From assembly GCA_026129485.1 (NCBI GenBank), contig JAHCHY010000014.1, positions 15,445 through 79,444 on the forward strand: 64,000 bases of DNA. The letters are read 5' to 3'. The DNA comes from Cyclobacteriaceae bacterium (GTDB lineage Bacteria; Bacteroidota; Bacteroidia; Cytophagales; Cyclobacteriaceae). A program made the translations under genes and the position numbers. This document shows positions 8,772 to 64,000 of this stretch, in pieces (position 1 is the stretch's first letter; each line of letters begins with the position of its first letter). A model generated the notes under the pieces. The model worked only from the letters and a program-made list of their open reading frames with translations, made no database searches and was not told the origin of the DNA.

Positions 8772-9341
8772 ATGACATTGGAAGAAAAGGTTAATGCGGT
8801 AAACGAAGTGTTTGAAAAGCTGGATGCCCGTATTGAAGCCTTTCAGGCCAATACGGCTCTGCATTGTAAGCCTGGGTGCGGTAAGTGCTGCTACAAGCCC
8901 GATATTGAGGCAAGCGTACTGGAGTTTCTGCCGTTCGCCCTGCATTTATACAAGCACCATCTTGCGGAGCAATGGCTTGAAAAGCTGGAAAGCAAGAACG
9001 ATCCATTGTGTTTGATTCTCAATCCGACTCAGGCTGGTGCGGGTTTGTGTTCGGAGTACACGCATCGCGGGTTGATTTGCCGCCTGTTTGGCTACTCGGC
9101 CAGAACCAACAAGTACGGAAAGAAGGAGCTGGTTACCTGCCAGGTCATAAAAACAGAACAGGCTGAATCGTATCGGGAGGCTAATGAAAAAATTGAGTCG
9201 GGTCTTGATATACCTGTCATGAACCAGGTTTACATGCAGCTTCATGCTATTGATTTTGAGCTTGCCCAAAAATCTTACCCGATTAACCGGGCTATCCGGC
9301 ATGCTATTGAAACGGTTTTACATTATTACGCGTACCGGTAA
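8772..9341 (+). CDS. YkgJ-family cysteine-cluster protein
   Basis: Motifs CKPGCGKCC, CLIL, CSEY..RGLICRLFG. Confidence 0.85.
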   Translation: MTLEEKVNAVNEVFEKLDARIEAFQANTALHCKPGCGKCCYKPDIEASVLEFLPFALHLYKHHLAEQWLEKLESKNDPLCLILNPTQAGAGLCSEYTHRGLICRLFGYSARTNKYGKKELVTCQVIKTEQAESYREANEKIESGLDIPVMNQVYMQLHAIDFELAQKSYPINRAIRHAIETVLHYYAYR

Positions 9342-9344
9342 TTT

Positions 9345-9617
9345 TTACCAGGTATTAGCAACGATCTTTCCTATTTTTTGAAGAAGCGTACCCTGTGATA
9401 ATTTGAATTGAGGGACCAGTGAACCGGAATCAGCCAGCGCTGAAATATCAACCAGCCAGGAGGCCAGTATAATAACTAAGGCCACGAGTATCCCGGTTAT
9501 TAACAAAATGTCTTTATGCGTGATCTTTGATTGCACGGCCTTTCGGTTTCCAAAACCAATGCCACCCTTGGAAAAGGTGAAATTTTGAGTTTTTTCGAAG
9601 TTTTGGATTGGGTTCAT
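9345..9617 (-). CDS. Hypothetical single-TM protein
   Basis: About 90 aa with one hydrophobic segment (ILLITGILVALVIILASWLV). ATG at 9617 preferred. Confidence 0.5.
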   Translation of the reverse strand: MNPIQNFEKTQNFTFSKGGIGFGNRKAVQSKITHKDILLITGILVALVIILASWLVDISALADSGSLVPQFKLSQGTLLQKIGKIVANTW

Positions 9618-9749
9618 GTTCGGTTTCGTACAATTGAGCTGACCTGATTCGTACATCCGGTTACAGCGGCCCGGTGTTTGTTAATTAAACCAGCGGAACT
9701 TGTTTTCTTTTTACATTTGTTACAAGACTTGACTCAGAATTACAGTTTT

Positions 9750-10340
9750 ATGAAAAAATATTTGTCGGTTTTGCTGGTGGTAATGTGCGGGCAGGTATGG
9801 GCTCAGGATAAGCAGGGAACAGCCGAAGCAACTGTAAAGTGGATGACGTTTGAGGAGGCTGTTGAAAAATCAAAAACGGAAAAGCGCAAGATATTTATCG
9901 ATGTGTACACCGATTGGTGTGGCTGGTGCAAAGTGATGGACAAAAACACCTTTACCGATCCGAAAATAGCTGCGCTGCTTAACGAAAAGTTTTACGCGGT
10001 AAAGTTTGATGCTGAACAAACAGCCGATGTGGTATTCCGGGGTACTACGTTCAAGTTTGTGCCTTACGGGAATAAAGGTTCTCACCAGCTGGCCATGGCA
10101 TTGCTCAATAACCAGATGAGCTATCCCAATTTTGTGTTTTTGGATGAGGAGTTCCGCATTATCCCGGTCATTCAGGGCTACCAGTCGCTGCCGGGCTACC
10201 GCAAGCCGGAAGACTTCCACATTTTTGTGGCCTACGTAAGTGGTGATTTTTATAAAACGAAGCTGATCCAGGATTATCAGAAAGAGTATAAATCGCCTTA
10301 CAGCCCTGTTGCTAATTCAGCAACGGGTAGCGGAAAGTAA
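9750..10340 (+). CDS. Exported thioredoxin-family protein (DUF255-like)
   Basis: Signal peptide MKKYLSVLLVVMCGQVWAQ from ATG 9750. DVYTDWCGWCKVMD CxxC motif. Confidence 0.88.
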   Translation: MKKYLSVLLVVMCGQVWAQDKQGTAEATVKWMTFEEAVEKSKTEKRKIFIDVYTDWCGWCKVMDKNTFTDPKIAALLNEKFYAVKFDAEQTADVVFRGTTFKFVPYGNKGSHQLAMALLNNQMSYPNFVFLDEEFRIIPVIQGYQSLPGYRKPEDFHIFVAYVSGDFYKTKLIQDYQKEYKSPYSPVANSATGSGK

Positions 10341-53733: not shown

Positions 53734-55704
53734 GTGGTTAAATCTCAGCTTGTGAATTCAGTACTTCAGGTAAAACAGTATTGCGATAGCCTGGTAAGCT
53801 ACAGGCGCAGAAAAACCCGCGAGGTAAAAATAGGGGGTATTCCCATGGGAGGCGATAATCCCATTCGGATCCAGTCCATGACCACGGTTGATACGATGGA
53901 CACCAAAGGCTCCGTTGAGCAGACCATTCGTATGGTGGAAGCTGGCTGTGAGTATGTGCGCATTACCGCGCCCAGCATAAAAGAAGCACAGAACTTAGCT
54001 GAGATAAAAAAAGCGTTACGCTTGCGCGGATATGATGTTCCGCTTATTGCCGATATACACTTTACACCCAATGCGGCCGAGCTGGCTGCCCGTATTGTTG
54101 AAAAAGTGCGCGTTAATCCCGGTAACTATGCCGATAAAAAACGGTTTGAAGAAATTGAATATACCGATGCCACCTATCGCGCAGAGCTGGAGCGTATCCG
54201 CGAAAAGTTTACGCCATTAGTCAAGATTTGTAAAGAGCACGGTACAGCCATGCGCATTGGCACCAATCATGGTTCGCTTTCCGATCGGATCATGAGTCGC
54301 TATGGCGATACACCGCTTGGTATGGTAGAATCTGCTCTTGAATTTTTGCGCATCTGCGAAGACCTGAGCTACTACGATATTGTGCTTTCCATGAAGGCCA
54401 GCAACCCGCAGGTAATGATACAGGCGTATCGCTTGCTGGTTCAGAAGCTGGACGAAGAGAATTTTCAACCTTACCCGCTTCATCTTGGTGTAACCGAGGC
54501 TGGTGATGGAGAAGATGGCCGCATCAAATCATCGGTGGGTATCGGAACGTTGCTGGAAGATGGCCTGGGCGATACCATCCGGGTTTCGCTAACGGAAGAA
54601 CCAGAAGCCGAAGTGCCTGTGGCGAAAATGCTGGCCGATCGCTACACCACGCGCAAAACTTCGAGCATTCCGGAGATTACCACCAATCCGATTAATCCTT
54701 ATGCTTACACCCGCAGAACCACACGCGAAGTTGGTAACATCGGGGGGCACCAGGTGCCACGTGTTATGGCCGACTTCTCGACCAAGGAAAAAATAACAGC
54801 AGCCTCGTTGTTTGCTTTGGGGTATCAATATTCTGTTCCGTTAGATAAATGGAACATTACCGATATGGCCTGCGATTATGTTTTCCTGGGCGACAGGGCC
54901 GTGGATTTTGAAATTCCCGGTATGCTCGGGCTTGTTTACAATCATGCTACCTGGCTGAAAGAAAAAGATAAGGCGCGTACGTACCCGTTTATTACTCCGA
55001 AAGATTACCTCGCAGGCGTGGAACGCTCTGCACAAATCAATTTCGTCTATACACAACTGAAAGATATTTCAGATGAGTTTATAAATGCGATCGCGAATGA
55101 TACCAAGGCCGTGCTGTTGATTGATACGTATAACGATCATGGTCTGGCGGAACAACGCAGGCTGTTTGTCGAGCTGATCAACCGGCAGTGTGATGTACCG
55201 GTAATTATTGGCCGGGCGTATGCAGATTTACAACCCGATCAATTACAATTGTATGCTGCTACCGATATGGGCGGGTTGCTGATTGATGGACTGGGTGATG
55301 GCGTATTCATTGCAGCCGAGCGATGCGGCTCTGACAAAATGATTAATGAAACGGCATTTGGTATTTTGCAGGCTACACGCACGCGCATTTCCAAAACAGA
55401 ATACATTTCCTGTCCTTCCTGTGGCCGTACGTTGTTCGATTTGCAGGAAACAACGGCAAAGATTCGCTCACGTACCAGCCATCTTAAAGGAATTAAGATC
55501 GGCATTATGGGTTGCATTGTAAATGGCCCCGGTGAAATGGCCGATGCCGATTACGGATATGTGGGGTCAGGCCCCGGAAGAATTACCTTGTATCGCGGTA
55601 AAGAAGTGGTGAAGCGTAACGTGCCCACACCGCAGGCAGTGGATGCGCTCATCGGGCTGATTCAGGAAGATAATAATTGGATTGAACCTCAACCGGTAAA
55701 CTAA
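53734..55704 (+). CDS. ispG: (E)-4-hydroxy-3-methylbut-2-enyl-diphosphate synthase (long form)
   Basis: Motifs IQSMT, ADIHF, R.NPGN, RIGTNHGSL, HLGVTEAG, CPSCGR, GCIVNGPGE. Confidence 0.96.
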   Translation: MVKSQLVNSVLQVKQYCDSLVSYRRRKTREVKIGGIPMGGDNPIRIQSMTTVDTMDTKGSVEQTIRMVEAGCEYVRITAPSIKEAQNLAEIKKALRLRGYDVPLIADIHFTPNAAELAARIVEKVRVNPGNYADKKRFEEIEYTDATYRAELERIREKFTPLVKICKEHGTAMRIGTNHGSLSDRIMSRYGDTPLGMVESALEFLRICEDLSYYDIVLSMKASNPQVMIQAYRLLVQKLDEENFQPYPLHLGVTEAGDGEDGRIKSSVGIGTLLEDGLGDTIRVSLTEEPEAEVPVAKMLADRYTTRKTSSIPEITTNPINPYAYTRRTTREVGNIGGHQVPRVMADFSTKEKITAASLFALGYQYSVPLDKWNITDMACDYVFLGDRAVDFEIPGMLGLVYNHATWLKEKDKARTYPFITPKDYLAGVERSAQINFVYTQLKDISDEFINAIANDTKAVLLIDTYNDHGLAEQRRLFVELINRQCDVPVIIGRAYADLQPDQLQLYAATDMGGLLIDGLGDGVFIAAERCGSDKMINETAFGILQATRTRISKTEYISCPSCGRTLFDLQETTAKIRSRTSHLKGIKIGIMGCIVNGPGEMADADYGYVGSGPGRITLYRGKEVVKRNVPTPQAVDALIGLIQEDNNWIEPQPVN

Positions 55705-55711
55705 TAACAGC

Positions 55712-55921
55712 ATGGAAAAGCAATCAACAACCGAAGAAAAGAAAAAGCTTTCGATACGGGAGTTTTTTACATTAGGCGAAGTAGGCGGGTATTTCTTCCG
55801 AAGAAAAGATGCTTCGCGTCCTTCCAATATCAACATCCGGATGATGCATGGCATTAACAAAATTTCAATTGTTGTTTTTTTGGCCGGTGTACTATACCTC
55901 ATCTTAAAACGTTTCATTTGA
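55712..55921 (+). CDS. Small conserved membrane protein
   Basis: 69 aa with RMMHGINKIS and a C-terminal TM; coupled to its neighbours. Confidence 0.7.
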   Translation: MEKQSTTEEKKKLSIREFFTLGEVGGYFFRRKDASRPSNINIRMMHGINKISIVVFLAGVLYLILKRFI

Positions 55922-56271
55922 ATATAGAACAGTTTCAGAGTTATTGCCTGGCCAAACCCGGTGTTACAGAAGAGTTTCCATTTGGTGAAGAAACGCTGGT
56001 GTATAAAGTGATGGGTAAAATGTTTGCCCTGGCTGATGTAACGCTTTTTGAAAGCATAAACCTGAAGTGCGACCCGGAGCAGGCGGTAGCGTTGCGCGAG
56101 CAGTACCCGGCAGTGCTTCCGGGTTATCACATGAATAAAAAGCACTGGAATACCGTGCAGATGGATGGCAGCCTGCCCGATAAGCTGGTAAAAAGCTGGA
56201 TTGACGATTCCTACAACCTGGTGGTGGCCAGCCTCCCGGTAAAGGTAAGGGCAGCGCTTAAGGCACTTTAA
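55918..56271 (+). CDS. MmcQ/YjbR-family DNA-binding protein
   Basis: Motifs PFG..TLVYKV.GKMFAL, NLKCDP, PGYHMNKKHWN. Confidence 0.92.
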   Translation: MNIEQFQSYCLAKPGVTEEFPFGEETLVYKVMGKMFALADVTLFESINLKCDPEQAVALREQYPAVLPGYHMNKKHWNTVQMDGSLPDKLVKSWIDDSYNLVVASLPVKVRAALKAL

Positions 56272-56370
56272 CTTGATTATCAGTAGATTGCAGGGTTTTA
56301 GAATCCGGGCATCCTGTAGATTACTTGGGTTAATTAATTAATTTTGTTGATTGCGAATGTCTGTATTGGA

Positions 56371-57210
56371 ATGATCCGGGCTTTACTTTTAAGTTTACTC
56401 GTTCTGTTGGTTATGGGTTCATGTACCCAGCGCCTGATTTGCCCTGCCTACCAGAGTTCGTTCATTTACGATAAGCCGGCTGCGAAAGAAAAGTTTGTTT
56501 ACTATAATGAAAGCACCACACAGCCCCGCGAGGTGCTGGCATCTGCAAACAGCAAAACCATAACGTTACCTCCCCGTGATTCAACATGGCGCAAGAGCGA
56601 TGCTTTACCCGGACCTGCCTTGCCGCATGTCAGAAGAGTGAAAAAGGATCGTTACCTCCTGTTGCCGGAAAAAACCTACAGGAAGGCTTTGAAAGCGTTG
56701 CGCACGGTAGAGATGAAGCCCGTATATCCAAAGAAGCAGGGTGACTCATTGGATATTGCAGCCGCATTGGATAGCGCAGCCCGCAGCATTTCCGATACCC
56801 TTACCGGCCAGGCTGCCAAACCCCGGCAGGCTGAAGACAGTGTGTATGCGATAACCAAAACCAAAGAGAAGTATAATATCGACCAGGATGCCTATATGTG
56901 GTATTTCCGCGATGTGCTGGTGTTGCCGGATGTACGTGCGGCCATGATGGAAGAAGGAGAAGTGCAGGCAGCGAAGAAAAAAGCAACGAAGAAATCCAAA
57001 GGAGGATTCTTTAAAAACCTGTTTAAGAAAAAAGATAAGAAGGCAGCAGACAGCTTGAGTATAACAACCGCGCAGCCGGACTCCATACAAGCCAAGCCTA
57101 AGAAAAAGCTGTTGAGTGGATTGTTCAAAAAGAAAGCGAAGGCAGATAAGACCAAACCGGATAACCAACCCGATGAAGCCAGGAAGGAAGATGAAGATGA
57201 TGGCTTCTGA
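56371..57210 (+). CDS. Hypothetical lipoprotein with a Lys-rich C-terminus
   Basis: Lipobox MGSC from ATG 56371, CPAYQS motif, low-complexity basic tail. Confidence 0.7.
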   Translation: MIRALLLSLLVLLVMGSCTQRLICPAYQSSFIYDKPAAKEKFVYYNESTTQPREVLASANSKTITLPPRDSTWRKSDALPGPALPHVRRVKKDRYLLLPEKTYRKALKALRTVEMKPVYPKKQGDSLDIAAALDSAARSISDTLTGQAAKPRQAEDSVYAITKTKEKYNIDQDAYMWYFRDVLVLPDVRAAMMEEGEVQAAKKKATKKSKGGFFKNLFKKKDKKAADSLSITTAQPDSIQAKPKKKLLSGLFKKKAKADKTKPDNQPDEARKEDEDDGF

Positions 57211-57213
57211 TTT

Positions 57214-57909
57214 CTAATCAAACAAGGTGAGGTTACCATGCTGGTCAGCAGCCGGAGCCGGTAAAATCAAGGAAGGTTTATCAAATTGAGGCGTAAATAC
57301 AGCAGGTGATACGGTGTGATGACTAAGATCATTTTCAGGATAGGGTGTTACGAGCGCAAGCAATTGTAATTCGGTCGCCCTTGGGTTTAGCCATACCGTT
57401 TCCTGTTCAGCGTTAAAAATTACGGGCATCCTGTCGGTAACAGATCCCACCGTTGCGTTGGCAGGCATGGTAAGCATGGAAAAAGTATGAAACGAATTTC
57501 CTTCTGCATCATCATACTCTTCCCAGGTTCCGGCAAACGAAACTAATTTTTGTTTGGGTGCAAAGAACCAGGGCACGGCAGATTTTTTGCCGATCTTTTT
57601 CCAGGCATAAAATCCATTGGCCGGGATTAGGCACCTGTATCGCATCAAAGCCTTGCGCAGCACAGGCTTATCCTGGATCCATTCTACCCGTGTATTGATG
57701 ATGCGTTCAGCCACTGCTTTGTTGCGCGTCCATTGCGGGGCAATGCCCCAATAGAAATAGGAAAAGCCTTGCGGACTTTGATGTGTAATTACCGGCAGCA
57801 ATTTGGCAGGGGCTGCATTGTATTGCGGCTCGTATGCAGGCGAATCTTCAATGCCAAATCGCGTAACGAGCTGTTGCATGGAGGCATGAATGGCGTATCG
57901 TTCTATCAT
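57214..57909 (-). CDS. SRAP/HMCES-family protein with catalytic residues substituted
   Basis: Motifs YNAAP, WG, INTRVE, RCLIPANGFY.W, DRMP. Start ATG 57909 overlaps the upstream TGA. Confidence 0.88.
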   Translation of the reverse strand: MIERYAIHASMQQLVTRFGIEDSPAYEPQYNAAPAKLLPVITHQSPQGFSYFYWGIAPQWTRNKAVAERIINTRVEWIQDKPVLRKALMRYRCLIPANGFYAWKKIGKKSAVPWFFAPKQKLVSFAGTWEEYDDAEGNSFHTFSMLTMPANATVGSVTDRMPVIFNAEQETVWLNPRATELQLLALVTPYPENDLSHHTVSPAVFTPQFDKPSLILPAPAADQHGNLTLFD

Positions 57910-58850
57910 GTACCTGTCTGAATGAACTGAAGTGCCCGCAGTTCGCTCCAATATACCCTATTTTTATTAAACTGCGCGAAGCCCACATGTCCTCCGCGCA
58001 CGGGATATTCTGCTTTGAGATAACGATGTTGTGCAAAGTTTTGAGGGTAGCATCCTGAACTCAGGAACGGATCGTTCGCTGCATTTACCAGCAAGGCAGG
58101 TCTTTTTATTTTATCTAAGAAGTATAACGAGCTGCAACGTTCGTAGTAATCAATTGCACCTTCAAAACCATGAAGGCGGGCGGTGTACGCATCATCAAAA
58201 TCCAAAAGGTTATGAATGCGGTGCAACGATTGTGTGTCAATGCCCGGCATAAGGGTGGCTTTTAGTGCAACTTTTTGCTTGAGTGTTTTTAAAAAACGCC
58301 TGGCATATATTCCGAACGCGCTCGAAGCAATCTTTTCGCTGCTGCTGTGTAAATGCAGTGGCACAGAAAAGACTACTGCACGTTTTACAGGGGCTGGCAG
58401 GTTGTCGCCCTGTTCGCCCAGGTATTTTAATGCCAGGTTTCCTCCCAGGCTAAAGCCGACCAGGTTAATTTCCGTATAACCTTTGGAGATGGCATGTTGT
58501 ATTACCGTATTCAGGTCATCGGTAGCGCCACTGTGATAAAAGCGGAGCTGCCGGTTCATTTCACCGCTGCACCCCCGGTAATTCCAGGCCAGCACATCGA
58601 AGCTATGTTTAAAGAATAGCCTGGCCATGCCTTTCATGTATGCACGATGACTATTTCCTTCCAGCCCATGTGAAAGGATAACTAATTTTTGCGAGTGGTT
58701 GTTAAGCCAGTCCAGATCCAGGAAGTCATTGTCGGGAGTGCTGATGCGTTCGCGTTGGTAGATTATTCCGTCAACCGTTCGTAACAGGGCCGGGTATATG
58801 GTTTCGATATGGCTGCTGAACAAAAGCGCGGGTGCACGATAGGCTTGCAT
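57906..58850 (-). CDS. YheT-family alpha/beta hydrolase
   Basis: Motifs HGLEG.S, RGCSG, GFSLGG, N.ANDPF, GGHVGF. Confidence 0.9.
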   Translation of the reverse strand: MQAYRAPALLFSSHIETIYPALLRTVDGIIYQRERISTPDNDFLDLDWLNNHSQKLVILSHGLEGNSHRAYMKGMARLFFKHSFDVLAWNYRGCSGEMNRQLRFYHSGATDDLNTVIQHAISKGYTEINLVGFSLGGNLALKYLGEQGDNLPAPVKRAVVFSVPLHLHSSSEKIASSAFGIYARRFLKTLKQKVALKATLMPGIDTQSLHRIHNLLDFDDAYTARLHGFEGAIDYYERCSSLYFLDKIKRPALLVNAANDPFLSSGCYPQNFAQHRYLKAEYPVRGGHVGFAQFNKNRVYWSELRALQFIQTGT

Positions 58851-58852
58851 AA

Positions 58853-59389
58853 CTACCAGTTCATCCGCTTGCGCAATTGAGTAATATGTGCAGTATGATG
58901 TGCGCCATGCCAGGCGTACAGGGCTATCATGTTATGGATTGCTACATGCTTTTGTGTTTCCGGGTGCAGAAACTCTTTTTGTAATTGATCAGCGCTTAGT
59001 TGTTCAAGCAGCAACGCAAATTTATGGTGAAGCGGCCGGATTAATGAAAGCGACACAACGGGCGAAAGCATGGTTTCCGGAGTTTCAGCCCATAGCTTTT
59101 CAAAGTAGGATTTAATAGTTGGTGTATCTTCCGTTATGGTCCACTTAATGCGGATGTAAGCATTCATGTGGCTATCGGCTACATGGTGTACTACCTGCCG
59201 AACGGTCCAGCCGCCTTCGCGATACGGTGTATCTAACTGGCTATCGCTTAACCCGGCAATGGCGGCCTCAAGCTTTGCCGGTAAGGCCCGTATCTGATCC
59301 AGACAGGTTGCGATTTCTGATGAAGTATGAGAAGCTTGTGGTGTGAATTTGCCTATCGGGTAACGCAGGTCTGTTTGGCCGGCACTCAT
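58853..59389 (-). CDS. YfiT/BstA-family DinB-like bacillithiol transferase
   Basis: Motifs DLRYPIG, TPYR.GGWTVRQVVHH.ADSH, YAWHG.HH.AHI. Confidence 0.88.
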   Translation of the reverse strand: MSAGQTDLRYPIGKFTPQASHTSSEIATCLDQIRALPAKLEAAIAGLSDSQLDTPYREGGWTVRQVVHHVADSHMNAYIRIKWTITEDTPTIKSYFEKLWAETPETMLSPVVSLSLIRPLHHKFALLLEQLSADQLQKEFLHPETQKHVAIHNMIALYAWHGAHHTAHITQLRKRMNW

Positions 59390-59390
59390 G

Positions 59391-60212
59391 TTATTTGTTC
59401 AATTCTTTTACGGCTTCTTCCAGCTCCTTGTCATCATATCCCTTGTTCAGCTTTACCGGGTTTGATTTTGCCTTTCGCTTCTTACGCACCCGTATGTTGG
59501 TAAACTCAATCAGTAATGAGAAAGCCACGGCAAAATAAATATATCCTTTCGGGATTTCCTGGTGTAAACCTTCCAGCAGCAAGGTAAACCCGATCAATAT
59601 CAGGAAGCCCAGCGCCAACACCTCCATGGAGGGATGGTTCTTGATGAACGTACTGATTGCACCGGAGAAAAACATCATCACGATAATTGAAACAATTACC
59701 GCGATGATCATAATTACTACCTGCTCAGGCGGCACTATACCGACTGCGGTAAGGATAGAATCGAACGAGAAGATGATATCCAGTAAAATAATCTGGATGA
59801 TAGTTCCGCCAAACGTAACAGCTCCTGATTTGCCACTACCTTGTTCTTCATCGTCATCGCCCTCCATTTCATGGTTGATCTCAAGCGTGCTTTTGGCGAT
59901 CAGGAACAAGCCGCCAAAACCCAGGATCAGGTCTTTACCGCTGAACGACATGTCATGCTTGATCAGGAAGTTAGCCGGAATAGTAAACAACGGCTCTACA
60001 AAGCCGATGATCCAGGTAATACACAAAAGCAGAACGATGCGAACAGCCATAGCAAGCGCAAGTCCTATGTTACGGGCACGCGGCCGTTGTTCTTCCGGAA
60101 GCTTATTGGAAACAATGGAAATGAAAATGATGTTGTCGATACCCAGCACAATTTCCAGAAAACAGAGGGTTAGCAGGGCCAGCCAGGTATCGGCTTTAAG
60201 GAACATTTCCAT
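59391..60212 (-). CDS. TerC-family membrane protein
   Basis: Motifs LEIVLGIDNI, DIIFSFDSI.TAVG, IPKGY.YFA. Confidence 0.92.
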   Translation of the reverse strand: MEMFLKADTWLALLTLCFLEIVLGIDNIIFISIVSNKLPEEQRPRARNIGLALAMAVRIVLLLCITWIIGFVEPLFTIPANFLIKHDMSFSGKDLILGFGGLFLIAKSTLEINHEMEGDDDEEQGSGKSGAVTFGGTIIQIILLDIIFSFDSILTAVGIVPPEQVVIMIIAVIVSIIVMMFFSGAISTFIKNHPSMEVLALGFLILIGFTLLLEGLHQEIPKGYIYFAVAFSLLIEFTNIRVRKKRKAKSNPVKLNKGYDDKELEEAVKELNK

Positions 60213-60351
60213 ACTAAAGTGCGAAGTTTGGTACTACTTTAAACGCTCAAATTAGGCAAAGGAACTTACATTTAAAACTCACCCGAGTAAAGAAAGAACC
60301 GCCTGAATTGAACTGATTTTGAAGGTTTTTGGGGATTATCCTACATGGTGA

Positions 60352-60427
60352 AAAAAGCTAAAAGGCTTAAAGCGGAAAGGCTTACAAGTTTAAAAACCGC
60401 TTTCCAGCTTTATAGCTTTCCGCTTTT
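60352..60427. repeat. Low-complexity inverted repeat built from about 7-nt AAAGC(G/T)-like units; probable terminator of the T9SS gene
   Basis: AAAAGCT-AAAAGGCT-TAAAGCG-GAAAGGCT facing CCGCTTT-CCAGCTT-TATAGCT-TTCCGCT-TTT. Confidence 0.5.
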
Positions 60428-63400
60428 AATGCACTACCATCACCTTCTTCCTCACCACACCGGTTTTGCCGGAGCCGATTTGTAAAACATAAATACCCTG
60501 CGCCAGGTGTTGAGTGTTTACCGTTTTGGCCTGCTCGCCTTTCTCAAAGTAGAGTTGCTGTGCCGGGCGGCCTACCGGATCAATCAGGTTAACGGTTAAA
60601 CGGTGTTCTGCTTTTACCGGCAACTCAATTTCAAAACTTTCATTGGCCGGGTTAGGGTAGATGCGGATGTATTCGGCTATGTCTTCGATGGCGGTAACTA
60701 ACGTAGGTTGATCGGGTAAGAAAACAGGGTTAAGGTCTATACCGGCCTGGTAAACCTCATAGGTGTTTACATCCTGTATGAATGCTACAATGGCCAGCTC
60801 CGAAACATTGATTTGCGGCTTTTCAATTCTTACACTATCAATAATGCTGATAACATCGGATTGACTCATGCCCACAGGAAGCGCATGACCGATTGCATTG
60901 GGTACCAGCTTGCGCAGCACAAACCGATTTTGATCCACCGTTTTCTCTACGACTGCCAGGTGAAGCACGGGACGTTTTGCATCGCCAATATCCGTATTGA
61001 CTGTTACAACAGCTTGTATTTTGAAATAGCTGTTATCTGACGCATCTAATGACTCCACGTCCACTTTGAAATCACTTGTCTTCAGGCTCTGCTTGCTAAA
61101 ACGGGTAGTTGCCCAATTAGCCAGGTTAGGGATGCCATTGTTTGTGGGGTCTAACGCACCATCGCTTATTCCATCGATATAGCTGCGGGGTATCTGCTGG
61201 TCGGTCATTGGAATACCGTAATAGGCGGCCCGTGCAAGCGGGTCAATAGTGTTCACTTCAAACTCAGAATCGCTGTTCGGAAAGCCTACATGGTACTGTA
61301 TTTTGGCCACCTCGGTGTTAGGGATTGCATTTGTAAATACGGTATTATTATCACCGTACCGTGATGAACCATTGTTGGTGAAGTTTTCAACCAGGGAAAT
61401 TCTATCTCTTGAGGTAATGTTGAAATTATTAAACGCAAATCCTTCGTATTCATCAAAAGCATCTGTTGCAAATGCAAATCGGAACCGGACATTACTGCGT
61501 TCTGCCAGGCTCAGGTTGGCCAGGTTATCCAAAGCTCTTCGGGCTTCCGTAAGCGTATCCCGGTTGATGTTATCCTCAAGAGTCCACGAGCCGCCCGACC
61601 AGCCTAACGGGCTGCTTCCGATATTACCGATACCAAATCCGCTGGTGTTAAACCAGTTGATTCCTGAATTTGTTCCACCCAAAGGAAACCAGGTTAAACC
61701 TCCGTCTTTGGAGAATTCCAGGGCTACGCCCTCCCGGTTTTGATCTGTATCCAATACCAAGTTCAGGGAAACAACGGGTCGGTCAACGCCTGTTATATTA
61801 AAACAAGGGCTGTTAAGAAAGGATTTTTCATTTGGATTATACTTCGTATTCAAGCCTGTTGCCCATGCCGGAGTTGTAAGCTCTGACATTTTGGGTTTGG
61901 CGGCACCAGGAATACCAAAGGCCCAGGTGGAATTTCCGTTTACATCTTCTATACGCCAATAGCCTTGTCCGCTTTCTTCATCTGTCATTAAATATGGATT
62001 GAATGTAGTACGCCTCAGTGTATCTAATATAGTAACCGGCTTGGTAATGGATGCGAAACAGCCAAGATTGGTATAGGAAGTAAGTGTAACGTTGTAAACC
62101 CCGGACGAACTTGTTGGATCACTTGAGATAAACTGGTGTATTGGTCTTTTATGAGTTCCTGCATTCGGAAACGGTACATTGGTTAATGAATCTCCTCGCA
62201 ATACATTGTCCCCTTCATCACCAAAATCCCATTCAAATTCCTGAACATTGTCGTTACTTGAAGCAATAAATCGGGTTCCGTCCCCTTCACAAATTAAACT
62301 ATAGGTAAAGTTTGGTTGGGGATTGATACCTACTGTTACGGGACGTGTGTCTTCATTCGTACAGCCTCTGTCATTCTCCACCTTCAGCCGGATGACAAAG
62401 AGTCCGTCAGACGCATAATTATGAGTAACAAATTGATTGTTACTAACTATAACCGGGTCAGTTTTATCGTTGAAGTCCCATGTATAAATATCATAGGGTT
62501 GTAAGGTGTTAGCATCGACTGGCCCTGTAATAGTAAAATCTTTAAGCTCACAAATAGTGGGTGGAGTAAAAGCAGCGCTTGGCGCTGGTTTAATTTCAAT
62601 ATTGACTGGTGTGGCATCGCCCCTACAGCCACGGTACTGCTGGCGAACCAAATATGTCCTGACAAGCGGAGCTAAACCTGTAACACCGGGTGCCGTAAAG
62701 GTCCAATTGCTTGAATCAAGCACAACGGTAGGTGCCAAGGCATCATACCAAAACGGCTTATCGTGAGGTCCGTTTCCTCTTCCGGTTACAGTAAAAGGCC
62801 TTGCCACACCATCTGTAACCTGGCAGTATTCTTCATCCTCGGTAATTGGAGTTAAGGGCTTATTTACCCAAACAAAATTTCTATTGACAGAATTGGGACA
62901 ATTATTTTGATCGCTGTAATTCATCCTAACGGTCAATAATCTTTCACTTACTCCGGGACCGGGGAGTGAATTATGACCAGGGTTAAACTGATTTCCACTT
63001 ATTGAACCGGAAAATGCAGGATTAATAGTAAAGTTACTAATAGCGTAGTTTGTGTTTGATGAGGATAGGGAAATAGCAGGTTTATCAAAGCAGATATTTT
63101 GTAACTCATTTATCCCAATTATTGCAGGTTCGGGCCCATTCTCAACAACCTGAAAGAATGCCCAGCTTTGCAGTACTTCATTACCAGAAGCATCCTTTCC
63201 AAATACATCCAGGTAGTAATACCCGTAACCCCAGCCATTTCTCACATGATCAAGATTCAGCGAGTAAAATCGGGGCAGGTTTATGGGCAACCCGGTTTGT
63301 ATATCGTTTACTGTGGAAGGTTCCCTGTCTATCAGGCTTAATGGATAGGTCGCCCCGGGAGGCATTCCACTGGCGAGTGGTGTACCGGTAGCTCCCGGAA

Positions 63401-64000
63401 GTAAAAAAGGCAGATCATAATAATAAGGAGAAGTATTACCATAAAAACGTATTCGGGTAAACTGGTACCCAGGTCTAATAGCGTTAGCTAAATTCACCCT
63501 AATGTCATTGTCAGTTATATCGCTTTGGCAATAAATTTCCTTGGCACCATTTACGGATAGTGCCTGGACAATAAAGTTTACCTGATCGGTATCGCTACAG
63601 CCATTTGCATTAGTGTAGGTGTAAATTATTGTCCAGGTGCCAAGGCCTGCATTTGCAGGATTAAAATAATAATTGCCATCACTTTTTTTGAAGGTACCCT
63701 GCCCTGAAAAATCTCCTCCGGCAGGAGAACCACTGAGCAGGTAATCGCGATTTTCCACCACGTAATTAACCCGTATTGCAGTTTCATCCGGGTTAGGGAT
63801 AATAGTTGCTACTGGTTTAGGATTTAAGGTTACGTTTACTAAATCCGTAACGATGTTATTTGCATTGTCCTTAACCTCTAATGTATATTCGGTATTTACT
63901 GTTGGGGTTACAGTGGGGCTTGAGCTTGATGAATTTAAAGTCGGATCTGGGGGTGAAGCAGTCCATCTAAATTGATAAAAACCAGTGCCGCCACTTGCTG
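60426..64000 (-). CDS. Large T9SS-secreted multidomain surface protein (PKD repeats, Omp28-like domain, type A CTD); 5'-truncated by the window edge
   Basis: The frame stays open to position 63998 (ASGGTGFYQFRW...). PKD motifs WDFND/WDFGD and the C-terminal IYPNPA..GIYVLQI CTD. Confidence 0.88.
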   Translation of the reverse strand, partial: ASGGTGFYQFRWTASPPDPTLNSSSSSPTVTPTVNTEYTLEVKDNANNIVTDLVNVTLNPKPVATIIPNPDETAIRVNYVVENRDYLLSGSPAGGDFSGQGTFKKSDGNYYFNPANAGLGTWTIIYTYTNANGCSDTDQVNFIVQALSVNGAKEIYCQSDITDNDIRVNLANAIRPGYQFTRIRFYGNTSPYYYDLPFLLPGATGTPLASGMPPGATYPLSLIDREPSTVNDIQTGLPINLPRFYSLNLDHVRNGWGYGYYYLDVFGKDASGNEVLQSWAFFQVVENGPEPAIIGINELQNICFDKPAISLSSSNTNYAISNFTINPAFSGSISGNQFNPGHNSLPGPGVSERLLTVRMNYSDQNNCPNSVNRNFVWVNKPLTPITEDEEYCQVTDGVARPFTVTGRGNGPHDKPFWYDALAPTVVLDSSNWTFTAPGVTGLAPLVRTYLVRQQYRGCRGDATPVNIEIKPAPSAAFTPPTICELKDFTITGPVDANTLQPYDIYTWDFNDKTDPVIVSNNQFVTHNYASDGLFVIRLKVENDRGCTNEDTRPVTVGINPQPNFTYSLICEGDGTRFIASSNDNVQEFEWDFGDEGDNVLRGDSLTNVPFPNAGTHKRPIHQFISSDPTSSSGVYNVTLTSYTNLGCFASITKPVTILDTLRRTTFNPYLMTDEESGQGYWRIEDVNGNSTWAFGIPGAAKPKMSELTTPAWATGLNTKYNPNEKSFLNSPCFNITGVDRPVVSLNLVLDTDQNREGVALEFSKDGGLTWFPLGGTNSGINWFNTSGFGIGNIGSSPLGWSGGSWTLEDNINRDTLTEARRALDNLANLSLAERSNVRFRFAFATDAFDEYEGFAFNNFNITSRDRISLVENFTNNGSSRYGDNNTVFTNAIPNTEVAKIQYHVGFPNSDSEFEVNTIDPLARAAYYGIPMTDQQIPRSYIDGISDGALDPTNNGIPNLANWATTRFSKQSLKTSDFKVDVESLDASDNSYFKIQAVVTVNTDIGDAKRPVLHLAVVEKTVDQNRFVLRKLVPNAIGHALPVGMSQSDVISIIDSVRIEKPQINVSELAIVAFIQDVNTYEVYQAGIDLNPVFLPDQPTLVTAIEDIAEYIRIYPNPANESFEIELPVKAEHRLTVNLIDPVGRPAQQLYFEKGEQAKTVNTQHLAQGIYVLQIGSGKTGVVRKKVMVVH

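Follow-up and report, generated by a model that had tools for sequence, protein, structure and literature searches.

SRAP proteins are, to our knowledge, defined by an invariant N-terminal Cys, and suicide crosslinking to abasic sites is the only bacterial function that we know to be accepted for them. The gene described here lies in a 64,000-nucleotide stretch of a Cyclobacteriaceae genome (contig JAHCHY010000014.1, positions 15,445 to 79,444, forward strand; this whole stretch is called the window below) and encodes an SRAP-like protein in which the entire catalytic triad is replaced. In the founding description of the family, the N-terminal Cys was absolutely conserved (Aravind 2013, PMC3765255). 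In Escherichia coli YedK, R77A, T149A and R162A abolish binding of single-stranded DNA (ssDNA), R4A, P40G, N75A and W106A weaken it, and H160A tightens it; E105A and H160A both bind with at least wild-type affinity, and Glu105 discriminates for abasic sites through electrostatic repulsion (PMC6821365). HMCES is recruited to forks through C-terminal PIP motifs, and its role in class-switch recombination is independent of Cys2 and dependent on ssDNA binding (PMC9067407).

An SRAP-like gene without the catalytic triad

The gene and the positions discussed in this study are listed below, all on the reverse strand, with the source of each assignment in brackets.

57214 to 57909, reverse: SRAP-like coding sequence, 231 amino acids (MIERYAIHAS...ADQHGNLTLFD), catalytic triad absent (open reading frame, Pfam, AlphaFold2, Foldseek)
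57907 to 57909, reverse: start codon ATG (sequence)
57904 to 57906, reverse: Ile2 codon ATA, where the nucleophile Cys2 is expected (sequence and alignment)
57901 to 57903, reverse: Glu3 codon, where the near-invariant Gly3 is expected (alignment)
57688 to 57696, reverse: Asn72-Thr73-Arg74, corresponding to YedK Asn75 and Arg77 (abasic-site contact and phosphate anchor), retained (alignment)
57604 to 57606, reverse: Ala102 codon GCC (FYAW against FxEW), where Glu105 is expected (sequence and alignment)
57469 to 57471, reverse: Thr147, corresponding to YedK Thr149 (phosphate anchor and pocket), retained (alignment)
57436 to 57438, reverse: Thr158 codon ACC (VTDRMP against HDRxP), where His160 is expected (sequence and alignment)
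57430 to 57432, reverse: Arg160, corresponding to YedK Arg162 (phosphate anchor), retained (alignment)
57217 to 57261, reverse: C-terminal tail PAPAADQHGNLTLFD, a candidate beta-clamp-binding or partner-binding peptide (clade alignment)
57214 to 57216, reverse: stop codon TAG (sequence)

The protein belongs to the SRAP superfamily (PF02586) by sequence and by predicted fold. The Pfam model covered protein residues 1–205 (model positions 1–212 of 214; E = 1.8e-51, 175 bits against a cutoff of 27.1), and an AlphaFold2 model built from a 150-sequence alignment (pLDDT 93, pTM 0.90) matched only SRAP structures in Foldseek (BT_1218, HMCES and YedK at TM 0.77–0.79; SRAP entries overall at E 2e-19 to 1e-11 and TM 0.63–0.79; next matches at E >0.1). 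The NCBIfam model of the YedK subfamily, NF007413 (PRK09951), was not reached (47.7 bits against a cutoff of 349), and a canonical ortholog, L017, likewise fell below this cutoff with 85 bits.

By alignment with YedK (phmmer and MAFFT; residues 31–220 of the YedK sequence used match PDB alignments), Ile2, Ala102 and Thr158 were placed at Cys2, Glu105 and His160, respectively. An earlier sequence-only reading of this DNA had reported MIERY, FYAW and TDRMP at exactly these codons, which the sequence reproduced in every detail. It had also estimated two to three nucleotide changes per substitution, and our recount gave 3, 2 and 2 for TGY to ATA, GAR to GCC and CAY to ACC, respectively. Its view that sequencing error is unlikely agrees with the fact that hundreds of independent assemblies share MI[ED]RY and these losses. 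Regarding the start codon, a longer reading frame beginning at a TTG at 57951 was considered and rejected, because MIERY aligns residue for residue with the obligatory MCGRY N-terminus; nearly all relatives, too, have their gene called from the MIERY-type start.

The question raised earlier, whether the triple loss defines a conserved clade, was answered positively, and this clade is a large one within the Cytophagales. An HMMER search of 1.84 billion representatives yielded 19,101 SRAP clusters, of which the best 150 (at 50% identity) were inspected, and at least about 45 of these were triad-less. The closest relatives, taken as the best 120 clusters at 90% identity, were 52–100% identical to the window protein and came from metagenome-assembled genomes (MAGs) of Cyclobacteriaceae and Flammeovirgaceae. 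Position 2 was Ile in 117 of these 120 clusters, position 3 was Glu in 109 and Asp in 10 (Gly in canonical SRAPs), the Glu105 column held Ala in 95 and Glu in 1, and the His160 column held Thr in 93, Ser in 12, Cys in 7 and His in 2. Leu, Phe, Tyr or Met, likewise bulky hydrophobic residues, also occurred at position 2 in relatives. The open reading frame (ORF) was intact at 229–234 amino acids across the clade, a characteristic C-terminal tail was present in every triad-less sequence among the best 150, and triad-less sequences clustered in neighbour-joining (NJ) trees. In addition, a few members kept Cys2 with Gly3, Glu and His gone (MCTRY, MCRRY, MCDRY), indicating that the active site decayed as a unit.

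Literature searches found no paper describing inactive SRAPs. In public records (NCBI, JGI, UniRef) the triad-less proteins carry the same names as canonical ones, 'SOS response-associated peptidase' or 'putative ... YedK', with the missing nucleophile unflagged. The name 'SOS response-associated peptidase / abasic site processing protein' is probably functionally wrong for the triad-less clade.

Selection was evaluated by comparing nonsynonymous divergence (dN) between the window and four syntenic relatives (L081, L084–L086; 71–86% amino-acid identity). The dN of the SRAP-like gene was 0.08–0.22, and in the same genome pairs that of its operon neighbours was 0.14–0.25 (hydrolase), 0.13–0.22 (YfiT-like) and 0.03–0.06 (TerC), so that the SRAP-like gene was not the fastest-evolving member of the operon. 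Its dN/dS ratio was about 0.03–0.12, a rough value only since synonymous divergence (dS) was saturated (>1.3). The gene is clearly under purifying selection. The protein has thus lost its catalytic residues, is under purifying selection and is conserved across species, as is characteristic of a pseudoenzyme, and the earlier proposal of a maintained pseudoenzyme is upheld by the clade-wide intact ORF and by a dN no higher than that of the hydrolase and YfiT-like neighbours. The sequence-only reading was to be abandoned if close homologs retained Cys, Glu and His and this copy showed relaxed selection. Homologs with all three residues do exist, but only at about 45% identity and in other genera, and selection on this copy is not relaxed, so that the earlier finding stands.

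These canonical homologs came from a scan of genome contigs (loci are numbered with L here). Among the matches listed, triad-less loci were found in Cyclobacteriaceae MAGs, Flammeovirgaceae UBA5585, Ohtaekwangia, Chryseolinea, Chryseosolibacter, Roseivirgaceae and Fulvivirga marina, and canonical loci in Cesiribacter, Cyclobacterium, Cognataquiflexum, Algoriphagus, Belliella, Lunatimonas and a Roseivirgaceae MAG. The canonical orthologs were 232 amino acids long and 43–46% identical to the window protein, started with MCGRY, kept Glu and His, and carried the same type of tail. For instance, the 232-residue MCGRY/Glu/His proteins of L013, L016–L020, L022 and L023 all end in DQFGNYTLFG, and the same YheT-like hydrolase lies directly upstream in each of these loci except L016. 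A search seeded with L016 gave an MCGRY start in 116 of its 120 closest clusters, nearly all 120 of which end in the same tail type. The length, tail and, mostly, hydrolase neighbour shared by the canonical proteins (Cyclobacterium, Algoriphagus, Belliella, Litoribacter and others, with DQFGN(Y/L)TLF tails) indicate that the triad was lost within one Cytophagales orthogroup.

Canonical and triad-less members differed consistently in only five columns (residues 2, 3, 67, 70 and 84); Gly3 was present in 100% of canonical tail-bearing orthologs, and an acidic Glu or Asp throughout the triad-less clade. On the alignments, these differences do not extend beyond the active site. A new catalytic site was also sought through group-specific conservation and was rejected, as no new polar constellation was seen apart from the acidic residue 3. 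Regarding the number of losses, NJ with BLOSUM distances placed a divergent triad-less group at the base and Fulvivirga (L021) and L014 beside the canonical group, whereas NJ with Kimura distances made all triad-less sequences monophyletic; the two variants disagree on the loss count, every arrangement had bootstrap support below 10%, and pairwise identities were not decisive either. No canonical SRAP paralog was present in the 64-kb window, where tblastn with four canonical SRAPs matched only the SRAP-like gene and no MCG[RK] ORF was found. A by-eye comparison of two match lists, which covered the two tail-bearing forms and not other SRAP subfamilies, showed no large contig common to both, weakly against their coexistence.

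Retained DNA-contact residues and the C-terminal tail

Our preferred reading, to which we assign a probability of roughly 0.5, is that the protein derives from a YedK/HMCES-type SRAP, is maintained without crosslinking and acts as an ssDNA binder that is tethered through its tail, probably to the sliding clamp. Without the N-terminal Cys, no thiazolidine crosslink to abasic sites would be formed. Methionine aminopeptidase does not remove Met1 when residue 2 is bulky, as Ile is; Ile2 would therefore preserve Met1 and displace the alpha-amine. The retained anchor residues would still allow non-covalent binding of ssDNA, with reduced discrimination for abasic sites, and the invariant tail DQxGN(L/Y)TLF would most likely tether the protein to a partner. 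Since HMCES has PIP motifs, the foremost candidate is the beta sliding clamp. Encoded in one operon with a YheT-like serine hydrolase, such a protein could shield or sense ssDNA reversibly at replication forks or gaps instead of acting as a suicide crosslinker.

The window protein shares with YedK and HMCES both its fold and its residues for contact with ssDNA. It keeps Arg4, Pro34, Asn72, Arg74, Trp103, Thr147 and Arg160 (YedK Arg4, Pro40, Asn75, Arg77, Trp106, Thr149 and Arg162, respectively), as well as Asp159 (YedK Asp161) and the pocket residue corresponding to Pro164. On the other hand, the positions of Cys2, Gly3, Glu105 and His160 hold Ile, Glu, Ala and Thr, Met1 is probably retained, and the 13-residue invariant C-terminal tail has no counterpart in YedK. 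The five-residue anchor Arg4-Asn75-Arg77-Thr149-Arg162 (YedK numbering) was intact in 102 of 129 members of the subclade of the window protein (79%), and in 97/116 and 97/105 members of two canonical sets (84–92%). In line with the DNA binding without crosslinking proposed in the sequence-only reading, these residues suggest that the window protein binds ssDNA without a covalent link and distinguishes abasic sites less well. The role of HMCES in class-switch recombination and alternative end joining offers a precedent for crosslink-free ssDNA binding combined with C-terminal recruitment to a clamp (PCNA); however, HMCES retains its triad, whereas the bacterial protein has lost it constitutively and its tail partner is only a candidate.

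The best conserved segment of the clade is the tail (in the window protein, PAADQHGNLTLFD), namely the last ten residues, D-Q-[FHY]-G-N-[LY]-T-L-F-x, in which D222, Q223, G225, N226, L229 and F230 were invariant among 49 diverse sequences with a mean column identity of 46%. The DQ[FHY]GN[LY]TLF form was confined to the orthogroup. Bacterial beta-clamp-binding peptides, at a terminus or in a linker, follow the consensus Q-L-[SD]-L-F, carried by Pol II, Pol IV and UmuC, or the pattern QxxLxF. The tail core NLTLF fits QL[SD]LF at four of five positions, with Asn for Gln. Like these clamp-binding proteins, the SRAP-like protein ends in a short peptide at its extreme C-terminus closing with L-F; it differs from them in the Asn at motif position 1, the additional invariant DQxG and a predicted ordered conformation, and is a candidate clamp binder.

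A related pattern was seen among canonical SRAPs. Q..[LM]F near the C-terminus occurred in 18 of 88 canonical SRAP representatives, compared with 5 of 672 background ORFs (p = 6e-14). Across many phyla (among P0141–P0270), about one-fifth of the canonical bacterial representatives end in Q..LF-like peptides such as QGSLF, QLGLF and QTSLF. Like the PIP motifs in HMCES, the Q..LF-type tails of many bacterial SRAPs may therefore serve in clamp recruitment; in the library searched, no paper linked SRAPs to clamp-binding motifs. In an Ohtaekwangia MAG (L004), a gene for a DinB-type DNA polymerase IV lies at 8837–9943 on the reverse strand, about 2 kb downstream of the SRAP-like gene and on the opposite strand to it. 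The C-terminus of this polymerase is APDQLKLF, and a Pol IV neighbour was seen only in L004. A clamp-type role of the tail is supported by this terminus, by the Q..[LM]F enrichment and by the PIP motifs of HMCES.

Several observations weigh against a clamp-tethered ssDNA binder. In a divergent triad-less group, including Reichenbachiella-like members, Arg77 and Arg162 are lost and the full anchor was found in 0 of 50 sequences; these proteins are more acidic (median pI 5.9) and still keep the tail and an intact ORF. The common denominator of the clade is therefore not canonical DNA binding but the invariant tail, and DNA binding may be dispensable for the conserved function. Next to the phosphate-binding site, the acidic residue 3 could make contact with DNA less favourable. 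The tail has Asn in place of the Gln of the clamp motif and the extra conserved DQxG element, and in the AlphaFold2 model residues 221–230 are not disordered (pLDDT about 81, isolated bridges at 221 and 227), so the tail may, as modelled, dock on its own domain or form a structured turn or knob. Finally, the conserved hydrolase neighbour has no known connection to DNA, and a search for transcript data gave no sequencing run.

The co-encoded hydrolase and competing explanations

The SRAP-like gene is the last of a four-gene cluster, of which the other members are as follows.

57906 to 58850, reverse: YheT-like alpha/beta serine hydrolase with GFSLGG, NDP and GGH motifs (ORF, Pfam, NCBIfam)
58853 to 59389, reverse: DinB_2/YfiT-family bacillithiol transferase (Pfam; NCBIfam NF009807, 239 bits against a cutoff of 160)
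59391 to 60212, reverse: TerC-family membrane protein, first gene of the cluster (Pfam, NCBIfam)

The spacings from TerC through the YfiT-type and hydrolase genes to the SRAP-like gene were 1, 2 and −4 nt. TerC is preceded by a 213-nt leader in which a hairpin resembling a terminator of the gene before it lies at about 60330–60425, and no Rfam match indicating riboswitch control was found in 56000–61000 at E up to 1. The operon arrangement described in the sequence-only reading is real and conserved in the closest relatives, all four genes being kept in the subclade of the window protein (L001–L010, L015, L081, L084–L086); the canonical tail-bearing genes, in contrast, are without upstream TerC and YfiT genes. 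The hydrolase fits the YheT model of NCBIfam below its cutoff, and a PDB sequence search for a solved relative gave only weak esterase matches.

The pairing of hydrolase and SRAP genes extended further. Most loci of the orthogroup with upstream sequence showed the hydrolase followed by the SRAP gene, including canonical loci and Sporocytophaga, across several Cytophagales families; the pair was present in two of four divergent triad-less members examined, and at none of 55 other SRAP loci. Gaps in 28 paired loci ranged from −8 to +222 nt and were 40 nt or less in 22. On this distribution, the pairing is older than the four-gene arrangement, predates the loss of the triad and is specific to the orthogroup. 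In the window, the ATG of the SRAP-like gene overlaps the TGA of the hydrolase as ATGA (57906–57909), as had been noted before, and this overlap was seen only in triad-less loci (L001, L007, L015, L081, L084–L086); canonical loci had gaps of +18 to +148 nt and never the ATGA overlap. Since ATGA requires a second codon starting with A, which is impossible for Cys (TGY), the tight translational coupling must have arisen with or after the loss of Cys2.

This neighbour gives rise to the best surviving alternative, in which the SRAP-like protein is a non-catalytic subunit or adaptor that binds the hydrolase, perhaps via the tail, and regulates or targets it. The order hydrolase-then-SRAP on the same strand is kept across Cytophagales families and Sporocytophaga despite differing flanks, the genes are closely spaced with several ATGA overlaps, other SRAP loci lack the neighbour, and the tail is confined to this orthogroup and retained even by anchor-less members. 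However, an SRAP–hydrolase pair is without precedent, the hydrolase resembles esterases only, some tail-bearing genes have no hydrolase neighbour (L016, P0149, P0165), and the pairing could be inherited synteny. We therefore consider the adaptor role unlikely, if worth keeping in view. As an extension of it, the canonical pair might process SRAP–DNA adducts, with triad-less lineages keeping the scaffold role only.

A second alternative holds that the tail alone is functional, for example as an occupant or regulator of the beta clamp or of a different hub protein, with DNA binding vestigial and the SRAP fold an inert scaffold. That the tail is the best conserved segment, and that the divergent group without Arg77 and Arg162 has a lower pI and yet keeps the tail and an intact ORF, would be in line with such a module. 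On the other hand, the subclade of the window protein conserves the anchor to a degree like that of canonical SRAPs (79% against 84–92%), which is unexpected if DNA contact is irrelevant, and we regard this explanation as rather improbable.

A further, speculative proposal joins the two proteins in a DNA-acting pair, in which the hydrolase would help to process or release canonical SRAP–DNA adducts and the triad-less SRAP would be a non-covalent ssDNA adaptor tethered to the clamp or the hydrolase. Taken as a whole this is quite doubtful; if true, it would be a natural experiment in which the SRAP scaffold is selectable independently of crosslinking.

A remaining covalent reaction of the N-terminal amine with abasic sites, by Schiff-base or AP-lyase chemistry, is very unlikely. 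Such chemistry is known from YedK C2A, whose covalent Schiff-base complex with abasic DNA is PDB 8d2m, and Asn72 and the DNA anchor are retained here; however, Ile2 (Leu, Phe, Tyr or Met in relatives) should keep Met1 and so move the amine one residue away, neither Glu105 nor His160 is present, and the variation of position 2 among bulky hydrophobics suggests an N-terminus that is buried and does not react. That the gene is a decaying pseudogene, artefactual or called from the wrong start, to which the loss of catalytic residues and the possible longer TTG-initiated ORF might point, is hardly credible given hundreds of intact 229–234-residue orthologs with the same substitutions, the low dN, the confident AlphaFold2 model and the alignment of MIERY with MCGRY, and relaxed selection is ruled out by the dN/dS values together with the clade-wide intact ORFs.

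Other genes flank the cluster. A predicted lipoprotein of 288 amino acids with a very Lys-rich, low-complexity C-terminal half is encoded at 56344–57210 on the forward strand and converges on the SRAP-like gene, the two stop codons being 3 nt apart; it has no Pfam match and occurs at the same position in relatives with 30–61% identity. Farther along, 53734–56271 (forward) holds IspG/GcpE, DUF6728 (69 amino acids) and YjbR genes, the latter two overlapping by 4 nt, a block found in synteny with the SRAP operon across many relatives. Upstream of TerC, 60426–63761 (reverse) encodes a large protein of the Big_5/PKD type that carries a Por_Secre_tail, in relatives a type IX secretion signal. Its ORF is 1111 amino acids from a GTG, compared with 1800–1930 in relatives, which may mean that the copy in the window is shorter or interrupted, or that it starts elsewhere.

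Meaning for the SRAP family

The protein in the window is a maintained SRAP pseudoenzyme; the finding is real, and it represents a variant of a known family. A clade under selection without the active site, in which the fold and the tail are kept, together with the ssDNA anchor in the subclade of the window protein, points to a second, crosslink-independent scaffold function of SRAP proteins. The canonical and triad-less orthologs, which share length, tail and mostly locus, provide a comparative pair in which DNA binding and recruitment may be separated from crosslinking.

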